Positions 5,085-48,588 of a stretch of 64,000 nt of DNA are shown here, piece after piece. The DNA lies in the IMG/VR virus record IMGVR_UViG_3300009370_002293, positions 35,813-99,812 of that record, one strand, 5' to 3'. Origin of the DNA: a virus. The notes below the pieces were generated by a model. It was not told the origin of the DNA. It searched no databases and saw nothing but the letters and a program-made list of their open reading frames with translations. Within the stretch, counting starts at the first letter, position 1; the number at the start of each line of letters is the position of its first letter. A program made the position numbers and the translations under genes.

Positions 5085-5636
5085 CTACCTTAAATCCTCC
5101 CTTAAAAGCCTCCATCTATCGCTATCGATAGCTTTACTACCGTTATCAATTAATTTTATCATATTAAGTACATCATCAATACTATCATAAATGTAATGAT
5201 GGGGTAACATGCCCATTAACCAAAGCGGTGTTTCAGATTTTCCGCCTTCCATGGAAATAAATATAGGTTTCTTCATTCTTACCGCTGTAACAAGTTCCTC
5301 TGCGCTTCCCCAACTTGCCACATTTGGCAATAAATGTGCGATTATAAAATCTGATCTATCAACTAAATTCAGGTCATAGCTACGAACCGTGGTCATTCTT
5401 TTTGTTACGTCACTATAATGACCTAGGCTCATTGCCTCATGCATTTTTTCGCGAGCCTCTTCGTCTTCGTCAACGTCTTTGACAAAGGGTTTTTTATACG
5501 GGTTAAAAACTGTAACACCTAATGGTGCTAACCTCGCTTCGACTTCGTCTCTCCAATTACGACCATTGGCATACTGCATATGCCCAACTAAATAGGTACG
5601 AGTTTTATTTAATAAATTAAGATCCTTTATATTCAT
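5085..5636 (-). CDS. Nucleoside 2-deoxyribosyltransferase-like protein
   Basis: YLVGHM, WR, VFNP, DLNLVDRSD, SWGSAEEL. Confidence 0.7.
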   Translation of the reverse strand: MNIKDLNLLNKTRTYLVGHMQYANGRNWRDEVEARLAPLGVTVFNPYKKPFVKDVDEDEEAREKMHEAMSLGHYSDVTKRMTTVRSYDLNLVDRSDFIIAHLLPNVASWGSAEELVTAVRMKKPIFISMEGGKSETPLWLMGMLPHHYIYDSIDDVLNMIKLIDNGSKAIDSDRWRLLREDLR

Positions 5637-9384: not shown

Positions 9385-9942
9385 TTATTCTCCAGCTATG
9401 TCGTGTTTATCTTCGCCCTTGTCTTTTTTAAGGCTTTCGATTTCTTTATCAATATTTTTAATAGCATCTTCATGATGCTTCCTTAACTCTTTAAGGGTTT
9501 CATGTTTTGTATCATAAGAATCTTGATTTTCCATCTTATGTCGCAAACTTTCCCTCATTCCTTTAAAATGCTCCTCAATAGACTCCTCACTGTAACCCCC
9601 CTCGTAATGTGATGCTTTGAGGTACAAGGCTTCGGAAACTTTAATCCCAAATTCTTTTGCTTTAGATTTTAATTTTTTAAAAATTTTAGCCTTTATTTCG
9701 GGAGATAACTTAGACTGAGGAAGCCGAGCTAAAGCGTTTCTTACGTGAGCGGCATCAGGAATGGGGAAATGGCGTAAAGATCGTGGCTCTGTTTTGCCGT
9801 CCACCTTCTTGCCACCGGGCTCTATATAGGCAAAATCCGAATCTGGCAAGTCATTGCGGCGCTTGCTTGTTAGTTTTTTGGCTAACGTATCGTCACCTAA
9901 GATTTGCTCGGTGAAATCAACTTCAAAAGTGTCATCTTTCAT
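9385..9942 (-). CDS. Phage protein with DUF6582-like domain
   Basis: RNDLPDSDFA...RHFPIPDAAHVRNALAR; GTGTAA 9 nt upstream. Confidence 0.6.
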   Translation of the reverse strand: MKDDTFEVDFTEQILGDDTLAKKLTSKRRNDLPDSDFAYIEPGGKKVDGKTEPRSLRHFPIPDAAHVRNALARLPQSKLSPEIKAKIFKKLKSKAKEFGIKVSEALYLKASHYEGGYSEESIEEHFKGMRESLRHKMENQDSYDTKHETLKELRKHHEDAIKNIDKEIESLKKDKGEDKHDIAGE

Positions 9943-9975
9943 TTAAAATGATTACACATTTTTTGTAAAAAAGGT

Positions 9976-10932
9976 TTATTTATTGTCTATTTTATTCTCT
10001 TTTAGAATTAAAATTTTTGGATAAGTAACCCTAAGCATAAATGGAAATAATTTTTCGGCCGCTTCCTTATCGGCATTTTTTGCTGCTTCTTTATCCTTGG
10101 GGGTATTTTCAATAGGCATTTCTTTTAGCTCGTCCTCGCTTGGCATTTTTACGTTTTTATCTAATGCCCACATAATCTTATGTTTTTCCGCATAATCAGC
10201 CATTCTGCGTACGGGTACGATTAAATTAAAGCCCTCTCCCGCTCCCCTTACAAGCATTCCCACATATCTTGCGTCAGATTTTAAATATACTCCACCTCCA
10301 GAACTTCCCGGGAAAGCGGTGCAAGTTGTCTGATCGAACACGTGCTTATTAAGAGATTTAATCAATCTTCCGTGTTGAGAATAAATTCCATCTGTCATGC
10401 TATTGGCACCCATTTGGCCAAGTAATGACCCCACGTGTAGCAAATCTTCACCGAGCGGTGGAATTTCTTTATCAAGGTAAAAAGTTACCGTATCTTTAAC
10501 AAAATTAAATTTACGTACCCGCAATAACGCTAAATCGTGACCATCTGTAGCATCACTATATTTTAATACCTCTGCATCCATTTGCAGACGACCTACAGTT
10601 CGGCCATCCTGACGAATTTCTTTAACAACCAAAGGGTCTTTGAACTCTACTAATGTTTTAGAGGAGCCATTGACCACCACTTTCCTAGTAGAACGTAAGT
10701 TGTCTATAACATGAGCGGCAGTCCAAACAAAATTTACTACATTCCCTTTTGAATCTTTTCGGGTAAAAATTACACCAGAGCCTTCACCGGTAGAAAACTG
10801 ACCCTCAGATCTAATGGTTACAGAAACATTTTGTAAGTGTTCTGCGGTTGAGGTTGACTTTTCAGCGGCGACCCCGTGCCTAAATGGGGCCACTAAAAAA
10901 ATAACAAGAGAGGCGAGGATGAACTTCTTCAT
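9976..10932 (-). CDS. Secreted trypsin-like serine protease
   Basis: Signal peptide ending GVAA; TAAHV, DLALL, PGSSGGG catalytic triad motifs. Confidence 0.85.
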   Translation of the reverse strand: MKKFILASLVIFLVAPFRHGVAAEKSTSTAEHLQNVSVTIRSEGQFSTGEGSGVIFTRKDSKGNVVNFVWTAAHVIDNLRSTRKVVVNGSSKTLVEFKDPLVVKEIRQDGRTVGRLQMDAEVLKYSDATDGHDLALLRVRKFNFVKDTVTFYLDKEIPPLGEDLLHVGSLLGQMGANSMTDGIYSQHGRLIKSLNKHVFDQTTCTAFPGSSGGGVYLKSDARYVGMLVRGAGEGFNLIVPVRRMADYAEKHKIMWALDKNVKMPSEDELKEMPIENTPKDKEAAKNADKEAAEKLFPFMLRVTYPKILILKENKIDNK

Positions 10933-11000: not shown

Positions 11001-11858
11001 CTAAATTACCGCTCGCCCCTTATTTTTTTCCCAGTCTTTTTCGGTTCTATCTACAGTAATATTGCGTTTTTCAGCAGCTTTTAATACTATTGAATTGGTT
11101 TTAGATTTTTTAAGCTGGTGTAACATGGAGTTTACATCCTTCGGAAAACAAGTACCCCCATAACCACGGTGTCCATCGGGACCGGGAACCGAGGTGTGAC
11201 TCATACCAATTCTTTCGTCTATGCCAATCAATTTTGCCGCAGTATCATAAGGAATATTGTTTTTCCAGCAAAATTCACTAAATTCATTAAACAGGGAAAC
11301 CTTTACTGCTAAAAATGAATTACGCCCATATTTGATGAACTCTGCAGTTCGGGTAGAGACAAAGGTTGTGTCTCCGTTTTTTATAGACCCCTGCTCTAGG
11401 GCATTGCAAATTAAATTATTTAATTTTTCAACAACACCACTATCTACAACCGTGTCATGTCCAAAGACCCATAAATTGTTATTGTAAAAATCTTCCCTCC
11501 AGTTTCTTTCGGTTAGGAACTCTGGCATAAAATGAACCTTAAGTTTCTCACAGGTACCCACTGGAACAGTGGAGCGTAGTACAATTTTATTTTTTCTTAC
11601 ACCGTTACGGGTTAAGTCTTTTATTGCGGATTTTACTATAGATAAATCACACACGCCGTTAGACCTCATGGGTGTTGGCACACATACAAAAATGAAATCA
11701 CATTTTTTTAAATCTTGAAGGGTTGTACCTTTTGGGTCACATTTTTCGGGGTCTTTGTCGTAAGCGATACACTCAATAAGCTCCCCTTTTAGCAATTGAG
11801 TCGCCTTTCCTACATACCCATTTCCCACTATCCCTAGCTTTATTTTACGCTTCTTCAT
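11001..11858 (-). CDS. UDP-glucose/GDP-mannose dehydrogenase family (short form)
   Basis: GNGYVG, VCVPTP, RSTVPVGT, PEFL, GYGGTCFPKD. Confidence 0.85.
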   Translation of the reverse strand: MKKRKIKLGIVGNGYVGKATQLLKGELIECIAYDKDPEKCDPKGTTLQDLKKCDFIFVCVPTPMRSNGVCDLSIVKSAIKDLTRNGVRKNKIVLRSTVPVGTCEKLKVHFMPEFLTERNWREDFYNNNLWVFGHDTVVDSGVVEKLNNLICNALEQGSIKNGDTTFVSTRTAEFIKYGRNSFLAVKVSLFNEFSEFCWKNNIPYDTAAKLIGIDERIGMSHTSVPGPDGHRGYGGTCFPKDVNSMLHQLKKSKTNSIVLKAAEKRNITVDRTEKDWEKNKGRAVI

Positions 11859-11866
11859 TTCATCTT

Positions 11867-11895
11867 ACTATATTATCCGTGTCAAAAAAGATCAA
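11867..11895 (-). promoter_or_regulatory. sigma70-like promoter
   Basis: TTGATC-17-TATAGT, 8 nt before ATG 11858. Confidence 0.65.
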
Positions 11896-11896
11896 T

Positions 11897-11925
11897 AAAA
11901 AACCCCCTTGCAATAAACAAGGGGG
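11897..11925 (-). terminator. Intrinsic terminator
   Basis: cccccttg/caaggggg 8-bp stem followed by a U-run on the minus strand, just after stop at 11935. Confidence 0.8.
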
Positions 11926-11934
11926 GTAACTCCA

Positions 11935-12180
11935 TTAACTAGCAGGTGGAGAGGGCTCACTAACAGGAATTGTTAGCGCTGGTTCGGCGCCCTCATCAGG
12001 TGGAGCCACCTCACTTAGTTTTACAATGGCGTAACCGGTGAACAATACGTTTACCGCCACAAGCAATAATGCCAGTCTTGCGAAAGTCATATTGATGGTC
12101 ATAACACCATTTTGGGGTTGTTGGTCTGCGGGCGAACTTTGATCGCTCGCTTTTTCCTTTTGGTCTGTGGTCTTACTCAT
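11935..12180 (-). CDS. Single-TM membrane protein
   Basis: One hydrophobic helix, Pro-rich tail. Confidence 0.65.
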   Translation of the reverse strand: MSKTTDQKEKASDQSSPADQQPQNGVMTINMTFARLALLLVAVNVLFTGYAIVKLSEVAPPDEGAEPALTIPVSEPSPPAS

Positions 12181-12238
12181 AATATATTCTGTACTGACCT
12201 ACATAATACGTATACTTGCTTTAAAGTAAAGTGTTTTT

Positions 12239-12610
12239 TTACAAGATTTTTATTTTAACTGGCTTTACTTTTTCAAGTTTTTCTAATTTGACCTTAAGCA
12301 TTCCGTCCACATAAGTAGCTTTCACTTTGGAAGGGTCTACATCTTCTGGCATATTAAATGAATATACGTTTTCATCACCCTCTTTCTTTATGGTAACGTA
12401 AACGCCCCCATCCCTTAATGTAACCTCTATGTCCTTTTTTCTCACCCCTGCTAATTCGATGTGGTAATCGTACGCACTTTCAGACTCATCAAGTTTAACC
12501 TTATTATAAGTGCGCGCTGCCCTCCAGCCATCCCAAATCAACTCGTCAATATCACTAAAGGCTTTGTCATAAATTGGGAACTCTTTAAATAATCTATTTG
12601 CTAATATCAT
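12239..12610 (-). CDS. Small heat-shock protein Hsp20
   Basis: ELAGVRKKDIEV, PEDVDPSKVKATYVDGMLKVKL. Confidence 0.9.
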   Translation of the reverse strand: MILANRLFKEFPIYDKAFSDIDELIWDGWRAARTYNKVKLDESESAYDYHIELAGVRKKDIEVTLRDGGVYVTIKKEGDENVYSFNMPEDVDPSKVKATYVDGMLKVKLEKLEKVKPVKIKIL

Positions 12611-14734: not shown

Positions 14735-15148
14735 GTGACTGTTTTTGATGCCACCCTCATGCTGTATAATTGGTTTAATGAAAATGATGTATTCTGCATG
14801 AAGGATAACTTTCAGCAAGCTGTTCTTTTGACCGAAAACGAAAGTCATGATAAAGCCTCTATTCAAGCTGCGCTCGGGCAACTTGAAGAAGGCGGAATTA
14901 TAGCAAAACAGGATTCTGAGGGTAAAACCTATTATGTTTTAAACCAGCGCCTCGATACACTTGAACAAGACCTGAAGATTCACCACACGACAGCTACAAA
15001 AATATCACAAAAAATAAATTATTTTTGTGAAAGGATATCTGATTTTCAAGATATCTGTGATCCATCAGACATAAAACAACGTGATTTAATTAATCTTACC
15101 TTAATAATCGATTACTTCATCGACAAAGAAAATGAAGAAAATGATTGA
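14735..15148 (+). CDS. Hypothetical protein
   Basis: 137-aa ORF, first gene of the rightward block. Confidence 0.7.
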   Translation: MTVFDATLMLYNWFNENDVFCMKDNFQQAVLLTENESHDKASIQAALGQLEEGGIIAKQDSEGKTYYVLNQRLDTLEQDLKIHHTTATKISQKINYFCERISDFQDICDPSDIKQRDLINLTLIIDYFIDKENEEND

Positions 15149-15173
15149 TTTAAAAACAAGTAAATATTATGGT
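15145..15173 (+). promoter_or_regulatory. sigma70-like promoter facing a non-coding region
   Basis: TTGATT-17-TATGGT; -35 box overlaps the upstream TGA as in other promoters here. Confidence 0.5.
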
Positions 15174-15177
15174 GGCC

Positions 15178-15493
15178 AAAAGGTTCAAATCCTTTTAAGC
15201 TCGCTGAGAGAAAACAGTGGAGTTTGGCTTTGGTGAGACTTAATGAGTCAGGGTAGATTTAAATATCTAAAATGGTAGCCCATATCCAAGGCATATACCA
15301 TTAAAGTTCCAGAACGGTTCTTTAAAAAAATCAAGGTTAGTTACCTTGGCGTTACCCCTGCGTGTTGCGGGTTGCTGCTGTAAGAAGTTTTTAGCACATT
15401 TTCTTCACCTGTTAAAAGGTAGGCAGTACGATATGATCGTATCTCGTGTCCCCATTCACTTTAAAATTTGGGCCTCAGAAGAAAGTGGTCATC
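15178..15493 (+). ncRNA. Candidate structured non-coding RNA, family not recognised
   Basis: At least 8 successive hairpins with G-U pairs on the + strand; no credible ORF; promoter before and C/G hairpin after. Confidence 0.6.
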
Positions 15494-15525
15494 CCCCCCC
15501 CTGCGGGGGGGTTATCTCTTTATTT
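15493..15525 (+). terminator. Probable intrinsic terminator
   Basis: C9-TGC-G7 hairpin followed by ttatctctttattt. Confidence 0.55.
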
Positions 15526-15615
15526 CCTAAAAGAAAATGGCCATGGCGTATTCTTAACTTTATTAATTTATAATAAATATTTGATTTTATTTTATTTTGA
15601 TTTATTGTTTTTTAT

Positions 15616-16413
15616 ATGGACAACCTGAAGAACGAGAACCTTAAGCCCGCTCTGTCCTTGGATCAAGTCAAGGAGAAAGAGTATAAAATTTTCATAGGTA
15701 CACCTTGTTATGGAGGCATGCTGGCCCAAGAATATGTAAATGGCCTTCTCAATATAACATATCAATCCTTAATGAGGGGCATCCCGATAGAAATTTATTT
15801 AGCTGGAAATGAAAGTCTAATTCCCCGTGGGCGCAACCATATTGTTGCCGAATTTATGGCAAGTAAATGTACTCATTTGCTTTTTATTGATGCGGATATA
15901 CAATTTCATTCAGATTCTATTTTTAAACTTCTTTGCGCAGATAGAGGGGTGACGTGTGGTGCCTACCCCTTGAAAAAGACGCCTATAGAATACGTGATTA
16001 ATTTTCCTAATGAAGCAGAGAGTAACACGAAAGAGGGGTTCGTGGAGGTTACGGATTGTGGGACTGGGTTTATGATGATAAAAAGGGAAACCATTAAAAT
16101 AATGCAGGAGGAATTTCCAGAACTTCATTATACGGGTGATATAGACTGGGGGTATCGATCTGATGTAACTGACCCAATTAAATTAGATTTATTAAAAGAA
16201 AATTTATATAGTCTTTTTGATACCATGCACGACGTCGAGGCTAACAACAATTATTTGTCAGAAGATTTTACCTTTTGTAGAAGATGGCAAAAGTGTGGGG
16301 GCAAGGTTTGGCTTGATCCATCTATTAAGCTTGACCATTTAGGAAAATTTACATACAATGGAGACATCTCAAAAATTATAGATTTTGAAAATTTAGAAAT
16401 TAACGACACATGA
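15616..16413 (+). CDS. GT-A fold glycosyltransferase-like protein
   Basis: IGTPCYGG, LLFIDADI, GTGFMMIKR, YLSEDFTFCRRW. Confidence 0.7.
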   Translation: MDNLKNENLKPALSLDQVKEKEYKIFIGTPCYGGMLAQEYVNGLLNITYQSLMRGIPIEIYLAGNESLIPRGRNHIVAEFMASKCTHLLFIDADIQFHSDSIFKLLCADRGVTCGAYPLKKTPIEYVINFPNEAESNTKEGFVEVTDCGTGFMMIKRETIKIMQEEFPELHYTGDIDWGYRSDVTDPIKLDLLKENLYSLFDTMHDVEANNNYLSEDFTFCRRWQKCGGKVWLDPSIKLDHLGKFTYNGDISKIIDFENLEINDT

Positions 16414-20114: not shown

Positions 20115-22580
20115 ATGAGTTCTCCAAAAATTAATGTAAAAAAAAGAAACGGGCGGCTAGAAAAGATTCAGATTTCCAAGATAAATAAATGCGCTGAACG
20201 TGCTTGCGCTGATATCGAAAATGTCTCTCCTAGTGAAATTGTACTTGATGCCCATGTTCAATTTTACGATAAAATACCCACAAAAGAAATAGACACTGCG
20301 CTAATCCTTTCTACTCGACAAAAAATAGAGAAGGAACCTAATTACTCTTATGTTGCGGCTCGATTACTATTGGGCAATATCCATAAGGAGGTATTTGGGA
20401 GTAGTGTAGATAAAGATGCATTTGACCATCAATATAGACTTTCCTTTATAAGTAACATAAAAAAACTCGTTAAAGAAAATCGACTTAATGAAAAACTACT
20501 GGATTTTGATTTAAAAAAATTATCTGAAAATTTAATTTTAGAAAGAGACTACAAGTTTAAATACTTAGGTCTACAGATTCTTTATGATCGTTACTTTCTG
20601 CATTCTAATGGGCGTCGTCTTGAGTCCCCCCAGTCATTTTGGATGAGAGTTGCCATGGGGCTCGCTATTAATGAAAAGGACAAGGAGAAGAGGGCTGTAG
20701 AATTTTACAATGTTCTTTCTACCTTCAAGCTCTGTTGTTCAACGCCAACCCTTTTTAACAGTGGAAGCCCAAGGAGTCAATTAAGTTCCTGTTATCTTAA
20801 TACCTTCGAAGACAGTATAGATGGAATCTTTGAAGGTGCATGGCAAGAGGCACGTAAATCTAAATTTGCTGGAGGACTTGGTTTTGATGTTACAAATTTT
20901 CGTTCCTCAGGGTCCCATATTAAAGGTACAAACGGTACGTCCAGTGGTCTTGTACCTTGGCTTAAAATTTTCAACGATCTTTTAGTTGCAGTGAACCAAG
21001 GCGGTAAACGTCCCGGTGCTGGATGCGCCTACCTTGAGCCATGGCACTTGGACATTGAGGACTTTTTAGACTTGAAAAAAAATACTGGAGACGAAAGAAG
21101 AAGGTGTCATGATTTAAACACAGCGAATTGGCTCCCTAATTTATTTTTCCAGTACATAGAAAAAAATAAAGACTGGTATTTATTTTCACCATCCGATACA
21201 AAAGAACTACATGATCTTTATGGCGACGACTTTGATAAAGCGTACAAGCTTTTTTGCAAAAAAGCGGATGAAGGAGAGATAAAAAATTACAAAAAAATAA
21301 ATGCCAAAGATTTATGGAAGAAAATGCTTAGAGTGCTATACGAAACAGGCCATCCATGGATGACATTCAAGGATAACGCCAATATTCGTTATTCTAACTC
21401 TCACAAAGGTATTATCCATAGTTCAAATCTTTGCACCGAGATTTTTCTACACACCATTCCGTCCTCCTTCAATGGGGGCACTAAAACGACAGTAGGCGAA
21501 ACAGCGGTATGCAACCTAAGCTCCGTAAACCTTAAAGAACACCTTAAAGAAAACGGCAAACTGGACTTCAAACAGCTTTCGAAGACTATAGCACTACAAG
21601 TACGTATGTTAGATAACGTAATTGACCTGAATTTTTACCCTACTGCAGAGGCTAAAAAAGCGAACATGTTACATCGCCCAGTAGGGGCCGGTACTATGGG
21701 GTGGGCTGACGTATTCCACTCTTATAAACTAAAATTTTCTTCAGACGACACAATTAAGTTTTCAGATGAATTATACGAGTTTATTTCTTATCACTGCATT
21801 CTTAATTCCAGTAAATTAAGCAAAGAGCGTGGAGCTTACTCTACTTACAAGGGGTCTTTATGGGATAAAGATATATTTCCTATAGATACCTATAAAAATC
21901 TTATGGACTATTTAGGTGAAAAACCATTGGTTCATAGAGGGAAAAAGTTCGCTCCTGAAGTTGACTGGAAAACCGTCAGAGGGCATGTTAAAGAATATGG
22001 AATGCGTAATAGTAATACTATGGCAATTGCTCCAACCGCAACCATTTCTTATATTCAGGGGTGCTCTCCTTGTATTGAGCCAGATTTTTCAGTATTATTT
22101 GTTTATGAAAATAAAAGCGGAAATCTAACTATTATAAATGAATGGTTTGTTGAAGAATGTAAAAAGCTAGGTATATGGAACTCCTCGTTCATAGATGTCT
22201 TAAAGTCTGTAGACGGAGACGTAGACCTTTTACCTGATCTACCTGAAGAACTCAAGGAAAGGTTCAAGACCGCATTTAACCAAGACCAATTTAGATTAAT
22301 TGACGGTGCCGCAGCAAAACAAAAATGGATCGATATGGGGCAATCTCTAAATCTTTTTAATAAAAACACATCCCTTAAATATCTAAATGACTTATACTTT
22401 CATGCACGAAAAAGAGGTCTTAAAAGCACCTATTACCTAAGGAATAAAAGTGCGAGCAAGATTGAAAAAGCTTCGTCTGGTGGTGACGATAATAATAATA
22501 ACGCAAGTGATACTAACCCTAATATATCTATTAGTTCATCTTGTTCGATCTTAGACCCTGATTGCGAAAGTTGCCAATAA
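20115..22580 (+). CDS. nrdA: Class I ribonucleotide reductase alpha subunit
   Basis: ATP cone (VKKRNG), TPTLFN, SSCY, SNLCTEI, APTATIS, KSTYYLR, C-terminal CESCQ. Confidence 0.97.
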   Translation: MSSPKINVKKRNGRLEKIQISKINKCAERACADIENVSPSEIVLDAHVQFYDKIPTKEIDTALILSTRQKIEKEPNYSYVAARLLLGNIHKEVFGSSVDKDAFDHQYRLSFISNIKKLVKENRLNEKLLDFDLKKLSENLILERDYKFKYLGLQILYDRYFLHSNGRRLESPQSFWMRVAMGLAINEKDKEKRAVEFYNVLSTFKLCCSTPTLFNSGSPRSQLSSCYLNTFEDSIDGIFEGAWQEARKSKFAGGLGFDVTNFRSSGSHIKGTNGTSSGLVPWLKIFNDLLVAVNQGGKRPGAGCAYLEPWHLDIEDFLDLKKNTGDERRRCHDLNTANWLPNLFFQYIEKNKDWYLFSPSDTKELHDLYGDDFDKAYKLFCKKADEGEIKNYKKINAKDLWKKMLRVLYETGHPWMTFKDNANIRYSNSHKGIIHSSNLCTEIFLHTIPSSFNGGTKTTVGETAVCNLSSVNLKEHLKENGKLDFKQLSKTIALQVRMLDNVIDLNFYPTAEAKKANMLHRPVGAGTMGWADVFHSYKLKFSSDDTIKFSDELYEFISYHCILNSSKLSKERGAYSTYKGSLWDKDIFPIDTYKNLMDYLGEKPLVHRGKKFAPEVDWKTVRGHVKEYGMRNSNTMAIAPTATISYIQGCSPCIEPDFSVLFVYENKSGNLTIINEWFVEECKKLGIWNSSFIDVLKSVDGDVDLLPDLPEELKERFKTAFNQDQFRLIDGAAAKQKWIDMGQSLNLFNKNTSLKYLNDLYFHARKRGLKSTYYLRNKSASKIEKASSGGDDNNNNASDTNPNISISSSCSILDPDCESCQ

Positions 22581-35764: not shown

Positions 35765-36888
35765 AAAACGAATGGTTAGTCGAAACAACCCTTCCCGTTT
35801 CTTTTAAAATCGAAACGGTAAAAAATCTTTTAAACCCAGAAACAGGCACCTTACTGGAGTTAGGCGACTCATCACGCCGGTTAATTTTTGTTGACTCAAG
35901 TGTTTTTTCTTTTTTTGGAAAAAAAATACATTCTTATTTTTCAAAAAATAATATTGAAGCCAAAATAGTTCCCGTAGACATTTCTGAAGAAAAAAAAGAT
36001 ATAGATACTTTAATGTTTATTTTAAATACTATTGAAAATTTTGGTTTATTAAGAAGAAATGAGCCAATCATTTGTATTGGTGGTGGTGTACTATTAGACA
36101 TAGTAGGGTTTGCATCTAACCTGTTTCGTCGAAGTGTTCCTTATATAAAGGTTCCCACCACCCTTTTAGCGATTGTTGACGCAAGCATTGGTGTCAAAAC
36201 TTCAATTAACCATTTTGGAAGAAGAAATCGTTTAGGAAGCTATTATCCACCTCAAGCCGTTTATTTGGATAAAACATTTTTAAAAACGGTTCCCCCCGAA
36301 GAAATACATCAGGCAATGGGGGAAATAATAAAAATTGCGATAATTAAAAATATTAATTTATTTTCTTTACTCGAAAAACACGCCCCCAAAATCATAGAGG
36401 AAAAATTTTTAGTTGACGGAGTAGCCGATGAAATAATATCCCACTCTATACACGACATGATAGAAGAACTTCAGCCCGATTTATTAGAAAAAAATTTAAA
36501 ACGTGTTGTAGACTTTGGTCATTCATTTAGCCCCTTATTAGAAATGAATTCTTTAAAAGACTCAAAGGTATCCTCCTTGTCACATGGCCAAGCCGTAACT
36601 TTAGATATTATATTTTCGAGCTGCCTTTCTTACTATAGGGGGCTTTTAACTCAAGAATCACTAAAGAGAATTATAAACCTATGCCGTAAATGTAATCTCG
36701 CAGTTACCCACGAATATTTTACAAATGTATTAATGTTATGGGAGTCACTCCTTGACACAACAAAACATAGAAACGGAAACCAAAACCTGCCTATACCCGA
36801 TAAACTTGGAAGTTGTATTTTTATAAATGATGTTTCTTTGACGGAAATAAAAAGAATAGTTGAAATTTTTAAAATTTACAGTAAATGA
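35761..36888 (+). CDS. Sedoheptulose-7-phosphate cyclase, 2-epi-5-epi-valiolone synthase type
   Basis: GGGVLLD, PTTLL..VDAS, NRLGSYYPP, MIEELQP, RVVDFGHSFSP, HGQAV, TKHRNG. Confidence 0.88.
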   Translation: MKNEWLVETTLPVSFKIETVKNLLNPETGTLLELGDSSRRLIFVDSSVFSFFGKKIHSYFSKNNIEAKIVPVDISEEKKDIDTLMFILNTIENFGLLRRNEPIICIGGGVLLDIVGFASNLFRRSVPYIKVPTTLLAIVDASIGVKTSINHFGRRNRLGSYYPPQAVYLDKTFLKTVPPEEIHQAMGEIIKIAIIKNINLFSLLEKHAPKIIEEKFLVDGVADEIISHSIHDMIEELQPDLLEKNLKRVVDFGHSFSPLLEMNSLKDSKVSSLSHGQAVTLDIIFSSCLSYYRGLLTQESLKRIINLCRKCNLAVTHEYFTNVLMLWESLLDTTKHRNGNQNLPIPDKLGSCIFINDVSLTEIKRIVEIFKIYSK

Positions 36889-48183: not shown

Positions 48184-48588
48184 GGGAGCGTACTGGATTC
48201 GATTTAGGGTCTTACGCCGAATTGCAAGTAGAGGATGATAGTTGGCCTCTTAAATCATCTATCTAGGTATTCAACTGCCAATAATATTGTTGATATGGCT
48301 CCTTCTCTCGACGAAGCTGATGCGATTCTCGCTAAGTTTGGTTGGGCCGAAGAGGCTGCTGTAGCTGCGTAAGCTACCCGTCCTACTCTGGATGCTCGTT
48401 AAGGAGTTAGGGCGTCGATAACGAGCAAAAAAAACTAGGAAGGGTGAGGAGTCTAGTCTAAATAAAGTGCCTCCAACCTCGTGTGTAGTTGTTAGTGATG
48501 AAGCACGAAAATTAACACTAACTAAACTTGTAGTATATTTGAGCCTATGGTTCTAAAGACGCGGGTTCGACTCCCGCCGCTTCCACCA
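48184..48588 (+). ncRNA. ssrA: tmRNA, tag ANNIVDMAPSLDEADAILAKFGWAEEAAVAA (48277..48372)
   Basis: 5' GGGAGCG..GGATTCGA pairs with 3' CGCTTCC-ACCA including G3:U; T-arm GCGGG-TTCGACT-CCCGC; PK1-like GAGG..GTTGGCCTC; resume context CAACT/GCC. Confidence 0.95.

Follow-up and report, generated by a model that had tools for sequence, protein, structure and literature searches.

Does a long gap without a credible open reading frame (ORF) in the genome of an uncultured phage hold a gene for a structured RNA and, if so, to which kind of RNA does it belong? The gap lies within a stretch of 64,000 nt (hereafter the window), corresponding to positions 35,813 to 99,812 of the IMG/VR record IMGVR_UViG_3300009370_002293, a 99.8-kb virus record estimated to be 64% complete. 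It spans 467 nt (15149-15615) between the stop of a 137-aa ORF (14735-15148, + strand) and the start of a 265-aa glycosyltransferase-like ORF (15616-16413, + strand). A preliminary description, made from the sequence alone, had proposed an unrecognised RNA of about 330 nt on the + strand with its own promoter and terminator, possibly a tRNA mimic, a decoy or a ribozyme. We find that the observation holds. Window positions 15145-15545 carry a self-contained gene for a folded non-coding RNA of about 340 nt (about 15179-15520), framed by promoter-like signals and an intrinsic terminator and belonging to a family of at least 36 related copies in large (about 160-180 kb) uncultured, partly marine, tailed phages. 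The interpretation is only partly supported, since a new phage non-coding RNA on the + strand is well supported whereas a tRNA mimic is not.

The gap itself contains only short ORFs of 34, 28, 75 and 60 aa. The + strand folds better than shuffled sequences (z -2.5), whereas the - strand does not (z -0.9), and a terminator scan found a C9-TGC-G7 hairpin with a U-rich tail at 15493-15511. Comparison with Rfam 15 (4227 models), one of the tests set beforehand, gave at gathering thresholds a single match in the whole window, a tmRNA at 48184-48588 (+ strand). ARAGORN also found only this tmRNA, which is a one-piece molecule (123 bits) with an unusually long predicted tag of 30 residues ending in AAVAA. 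In E-value mode, the region itself gave only a 31-bit UptR-like match on the terminator hairpin, against a threshold of 100. In twelve other loci of the family, Rfam matched only tRNAs elsewhere in the sequence, and in one further search, of member L301, nothing was found at E up to 5.

Relatives were collected in several steps. In what follows, L numbers designate the contigs or loci compared. The glycosyltransferase-like gene led to three close viral contigs and one TARA ocean scaffold whose upstream region is about 79% identical. A metagenome scan with this gene gave 3 loci, only one of them new for this RNA, and a scan of genome contigs gave only distant bacterial glycosyltransferases. The close sequences already showed four compensatory changes and 13 one-sided changes that all keep a G-U pair. 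From an 18-helix structure, a covariance model (R1) was built on three close relatives. The 137-aa protein alone, used as a query in IMG/VR, found nothing, but as an alignment it found L087. In this contig, which at first seemed to lack the RNA, R1 located a much more divergent full-length copy 770 nt further on (125 bits). L087 has no glycosyltransferase gene and a convergent ORF follows the RNA. A pattern taken from hairpin H2 then found 26 IMG/VR stretches, a pattern running from H8 to the GUAA junction added 9 members, and a pattern from the H10 loop, filtered with a 109-position core model (R2), added 6. In contrast, a 17-mer from the H10 loop gave only 2 chance hits. In all, 36 distinct sequences match the full model at 26-486 bits, nearly all of them over its whole length; closer protein relatives at 50-69% identity, known from protein searches, are not among them. 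R2 finds exactly one copy in this genome and in three genomes of 158-178 kb that are at least 96% complete, one of which has terminal repeats. Finally, blastn of the region and of the H2 hairpin against 50,697 phage records gave no true match, so that no cultured phage searched carries the RNA.

The resulting anatomy of the locus, in window coordinates and all on the + strand, is as follows.

15145-15173, predicted sigma-70-type promoter: -35 at 15145-15150, 17-nt spacer, -10 at 15168-15173, inferred start about 15179-15181
15178-15196, H1, the 5' hairpin, with an A-rich/U-rich stem and a T-loop-like loop in the window
15197-15225, H2, a hairpin with one bulged base and a conserved 8-nt loop (AGAGnAAy)
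15227-15323, variable 5' domain of nested helices: 15227-15254 (inner 15237-15249), 15255-15268, 15271-15302 and 15303-15323
15324-15348, A-rich linker followed by H7, a 6-bp hairpin (15332-15337 with 15343-15348)
15349-15371, highly conserved junction plus hairpin H8 (15357-15361 with 15367-15371)
15374-15427, three-way junction in which H9 (15374-15379 with 15422-15427) encloses the GUAA junction, H10 (15384-15387 with 15403-15406, conserved 15-nt loop) and H11 (15408-15410 with 15417-15419)
15428-15492, 3' domain: hairpin 15428-15440 (or the alternative pairing 15433-15438 with 15487-15492), hairpin 15446-15459 whose loop CCCA (15451-15454) pairs with UGGG (15469-15472) as a pseudoknot, then the purine-rich segment X (15473-15492)
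15493-15523, intrinsic terminator: C9-TGC-G7 hairpin (15493-15511) followed by a U-rich tail
15526-15544, X', a near-repeat of X about 15 nt after the terminator

Is this structure real? On the model-fitted alignment of the 36 sequences, 91.8% of cells pair (70.9% in shuffles), 83 of 94 modelled pairs show changes on both sides (55 in shuffles, 25-43 when partners are slid by 1-3 columns), and 539 cells are compensatory (160 in shuffles). None of 500 shuffles reaches any of the observed values. However, an alignment fitted to the model inflates pair counts, and the sequences are related, so that the shuffle counts are not probabilities. The 5' two-thirds were thus also aligned with MAFFT alone. 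On this alignment, RNAalifold recovers H2, H7 and the long-range H9. H7 pairs in 29-30 of 30 sequences at every position with 2-4 pair types per position, and H9, seen there as 7 bp, shows up to six pair types, H7 and H9 together pairing in 28-30 of 30 sequences. Moreover, many conserved pairs are U-G or G-U on the + strand, and single-sided changes keep G-U there, which fixes the strand of the RNA.

The individual helices are supported to different degrees. In H1, all 5 pairs show both-side changes and 100% of cells pair, while the loop sequence varies freely. The H2 stem is nearly invariant in most members, but two of the three motif scans used conserved helices as bait, which biases the apparent conservation of H2 and H8. 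Indeed, members found through other motifs (L320, L322, L332, L327 and others) carry compensatory H2 variants, while the 8-nt loop stays the same. Each helix of the variable 5' domain shows compensatory changes; its architecture differs between subfamilies, with conserved CCyrAGA and AAGG motifs. The H8 region is near-invariant across the family, H8 being a clean hairpin with a GNRA-type loop in L300 and having a bulged G in most members. H10 has 3 pairs with double changes, and relatives insert a hairpin at the tip of H11. The pseudoknot covaries, with CCCC/GGGG, GCC/GGC and GCUU/AAGC in other members, although the alignment of the 3' domain is poor and the least secure.

Most stems of the preliminary description therefore hold up in homologues: 15178-15196, 15197-15225, 15237-15249, 15271-15302, 15332-15348, 15357-15371 (with a bulge in most members) and 15374-15427, plus the terminator. 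Its G-U argument for the + strand also holds. The stem 15254-15269 is present only in the closest relatives, where it shows one compensatory change. The stem 15427-15441 sits where most members have a hairpin of unrelated sequence, and it competes with the 6-bp pairing 15433-15438/15487-15492 kept in the three closest sequences. In contrast, the proposed closing helix 15171/15486 lies between the -10 and the start and is lost in relatives, and the T-loop-like sequence TTCAAAT is particular to the window and its closest relatives.

Promoter-like and terminator signals are kept at fixed positions. The -35 element is TTGAC in 28 of 30 members and TTGAT in 2, followed by a variable spacer of about 17 nt and a TAnnnT-like -10 roughly 7 nt before H1 in all 30. 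These signals are recognised by consensus only, and the window's own pair of hexamers fell below the cut-off of the promoter scan. The terminator is a GC-rich hairpin followed by a U tract, as expected for a bacterial intrinsic terminator. A C-run/G-run hairpin with a U-rich tail is present in all 36 members, with U-G and compensatory variants, and its stem is often lengthened by flanking A/U pairs.

The region has no conserved coding potential. The longest + strand ORFs in 30 homologues are 12-66 aa, in differing frames and places, and the short ORFs of the window, including those of 75 and 60 aa, are broken in the nearest relatives by a 22-23 nt insertion and 1-2 nt indels. Neither is the RNA tied to a downstream gene. 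The usual order is the 137-aa protein gene, the RNA, then either the glycosyltransferase-like gene or a dNMP-kinase-like gene, but in five contigs the RNA sits between two other small genes and in six a convergent ORF follows it. Among the 36 members, only 5 (the window, L171/L002, L173/L003, L311 and L316) are followed by the glycosyltransferase-like gene, several have a separate promoter-like site after X', and more distant relatives of that gene (below 41% identity) have no such gap. The 265-aa protein belongs to PHROG 1574 (unknown function), with weak glycosyltransferase (Anp1-type) signals. More than 1,600 relatives were found (E at most 1e-40), including in Sinorhizobium, Caulobacter, Synechococcus and Pelagibacter phages and in alphaproteobacterial genomes.

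The 137-aa neighbour has no Pfam or PHROG family, and only 4 relatives turned up in a search of 5.8 billion proteins, but it is present in every contig with enough flank and in all 29 RNA-bearing loci searched. It is modelled with a mean pLDDT of 92 as an N-terminal winged helix plus two long C-terminal helices, an architecture like BlaI/MecI, with weak fold matches to BlaI/MecI, MarR and Fur repressors, all above E 0.001. The same protein family also precedes an unrelated region, here called type B. In two related contigs (L005:2500-2989, the same as L006 and L089, and L090:1474-1978), the slot between the homologues of the 137-aa protein and of the glycosyltransferase holds a different ORF-free region of about 490 nt, highly conserved between the two (nhmmer E about 1e-114), with a conserved TTGACT-17-TAGnCT promoter-like site and an internal direct repeat of about 30 nt occurring twice about 190 nt apart. 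It has no Rfam match, its local alignment with the present RNA is no better than shuffles, neither model matches it, and a 14-mer taken from it gave more than 120 chance hits in a motif scan. It may be a second unknown RNA. In the part of the record before the window, four further ORF-free gaps of 320-650 nt occur (5137-5574, 9751-10077, 11820-12470 and 15095-15418 of the record), and tRNA-Arg(tct) and tRNA-Leu(taa) lie at 21625-21792 on the minus strand.

An unexpected feature is found at the 3' end. In all 30 members tested, the roughly 20-30 nt before the terminator (20-35 nt at most) recur about 15 nt after it, each repeat scoring z 2-7 against shuffles. X differs a great deal between members, yet a member's own X' is the best match of its X in 14 of 21 non-redundant members and in the top three in all (mean score 29.1 within members, 16.5 between). 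X' regularly lacks one base after the first three and gains one or two later, a pattern that argues for selection rather than simple gene conversion. X' lies outside the terminated RNA; in some members it abuts the next promoter-like site and in others it overlaps the end of a convergent ORF. A duplex search for a conserved partner of X' elsewhere in the RNA gave no consistent site, and the repeat remains unexplained.

What, then, does the RNA do? The analysis establishes the sequence family, a covariation-supported fold of about 14 helices including a three-way junction and a pseudoknot, the + strand as the RNA strand, the absence of coding potential, promoter-like and terminator signals at fixed positions, and independence from any particular downstream gene. 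The remainder of our preferred reading, to which as a whole we give a probability of about 0.8, is inferred from sequence alone. In this view, host sigma-70 RNA polymerase would transcribe the gene early from its own promoter and stop at the terminator, releasing a stable RNA. The early-type promoter suggests a role at the start of infection. The size, the covarying helices, the pseudoknot and the invariant loops point to an RNA acting through its three-dimensional shape. This RNA would act in trans through its invariant loops and junctions (the H2 loop, the H8 region, the H10 loop and the pseudoknot loop) by binding a protein or nucleic-acid partner, as an RNP scaffold, decoy or ribozyme. Because X is copied just past the terminator and the two co-evolve, its action probably involves its own 3' flank, either by competing for one factor or by sharing one pairing partner. 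However, a chain of mostly local hairpins is also what a protein-binding array or a primer RNA could look like.

The main rival, although unlikely, is a structured replication-primer or origin RNA. X has the same sequence as the non-template strand at X', so the RNA could anneal to the template strand there, seed an R-loop just past its own gene and prime DNA synthesis. The predicted early-type sigma-70 promoter and the co-evolving X/X' direct repeats fit this reading. ColE1 RNA II and the transcripts at T4 origins are likewise untranslated and come from an early or constitutive promoter, and ColE1 RNA II needs a defined fold. In T4, R-loop RNAs prime some origins (oriF and oriG being compared here), oriE depends on an early promoter and carries direct repeats, and active origins lie near strand switches (PMC3016281); in the window, the gene lies about 450 nt from a switch of coding strand at about 14.7 kb. 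However, only the geometry is seen, the X sequence recurring downstream as X'. A strong terminator lies between X and X', part of X may be base-paired within the RNA, and in 5 contigs the gene sits inside a co-directional block 2-3 kb from the strand switch. No initiator or iteron array was identified, there is no sequence relation to these RNAs, the fold is far more conserved, and such elaborate loops and a pseudoknot exceed what a primer is known to need. The T4 analogy is also loose, since the Pfam families Gp23 (T4 major capsid) and Portal_T4 were not found in this record or in three member genomes at least 96% complete (those of L313, L303 and L336), although the control genomes gave nothing either, which leaves a T4-like label unverified rather than refuted. 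A RegA family search of this 64%-complete genome found nothing, again with unresponsive controls. About as unlikely is a decoy in which X on an abundant RNA imitates X', as DNA or as read-through RNA, and titrates a factor binding there, possibly the predicted winged-helix neighbour. The co-evolution of X and X' with systematic differences and the constant presence of that protein gene fit this idea, but a fixed protein motif would not be expected to change from member to member unless the protein co-evolves, in 5 contigs the protein gene is 2-3 kb away, the same protein family also precedes the unrelated type B region, and its fold matches are weak.

The other readings are very doubtful. A cis-acting leader, riboswitch or attenuator of the glycosyltransferase-like gene would fit the position and the terminator in the window, but is contradicted by the variable context, and no G-rich antiterminator partner for the C-run was seen by eye. 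A DNA-level element, such as cruciforms, a recombination site or an operator array, would account for the dense inverted repeats, the X/X' direct repeats and the neighbouring DNA-binding-like protein. However, many conserved + strand G-U pairs would be A-C mismatches in the complementary strand or in a cruciform, H9 and the pseudoknot covary, and the promoter-like and terminator signals frame the element exactly. A tRNA or tmRNA mimic, a permuted tRNA-like or two-piece tmRNA gene and a diverged RNase P RNA were also considered. In the window, H1 has a 5-bp stem and a 7-nt TTCAAAT loop followed directly by a 7-bp stem, the geometry of a T arm followed by an acceptor strand, and the RNA contains an H-type pseudoknot in a phage that also carries a true tmRNA. 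Nevertheless, the loop is not conserved across the 36 members, there is no acceptor end and no conserved tag frame, and neither ARAGORN nor the Rfam tRNA and tmRNA models find anything there. Short resemblances to RNase P conserved regions were seen by eye, but no RNase P model matches even at E 10, and the CR-I-like string at 15304-15311 is the stem of a local hairpin whose loop varies. These ideas were rejected.

Among described RNAs, GOLLD and ROOL (RF01998 and RF03087) are likewise large, multi-helix RNAs of phages and prophages with highly conserved loops, a stand-alone gene and unknown function. In several members, tRNA genes lie 1.4-4.5 kb from the RNA gene (L304:1953-3390, L316:12866-13087, L320:230-4891), a loose echo of the tRNA neighbourhood of GOLLD and ROOL. 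The present RNA is smaller (about 340 nt against about 580-800), is not directly next to tRNAs, has the X/X' flank repeat, and shows no match to the GOLLD and ROOL models at any threshold or to the OLE and raiA models. A survey of IMG/VR by the same kind of evidence, covariation in phage intergenic regions, listed 8,495 candidate structured RNAs of 29-151 nt (Fremin et al., 2023, PMC10690425), so that at most pieces of this RNA, such as single hairpins or the terminator, could already be listed there. More tentatively, the family could be a new class of large phage RNA working together with its own 3' flank, in which the folded core positions X so that the RNA, or a protein bound to it, recognises the matching DNA or RNA site X'. 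It might act as an RNA-seeded R-loop or replication primer, or as a self-mimicking switch for the downstream early genes; alternatively, the conserved core could be a ribozyme or a self-assembling particle like GOLLD and ROOL.

The family is genuinely new as a sequence and structure class, even if it belongs to the familiar genre of phage non-coding RNAs of unknown function. Large, intricately folded non-coding RNAs are rare, and those already described (ribosome, RNase P, tmRNA, group I/II introns, and more recently GOLLD, ROOL, OLE and the IscB/TnpB guide RNAs) have repeatedly opened new biochemistry. Here, an RNA of about 340 nt with a pseudoknot and several near-invariant loops is kept as a single-copy gene, with an early-type promoter inferred from sequence, in a clade of 160-180 kb phages, and the co-evolving copy of its 3' segment beyond the terminator is an unusual feature that gives a concrete handle for experiments.
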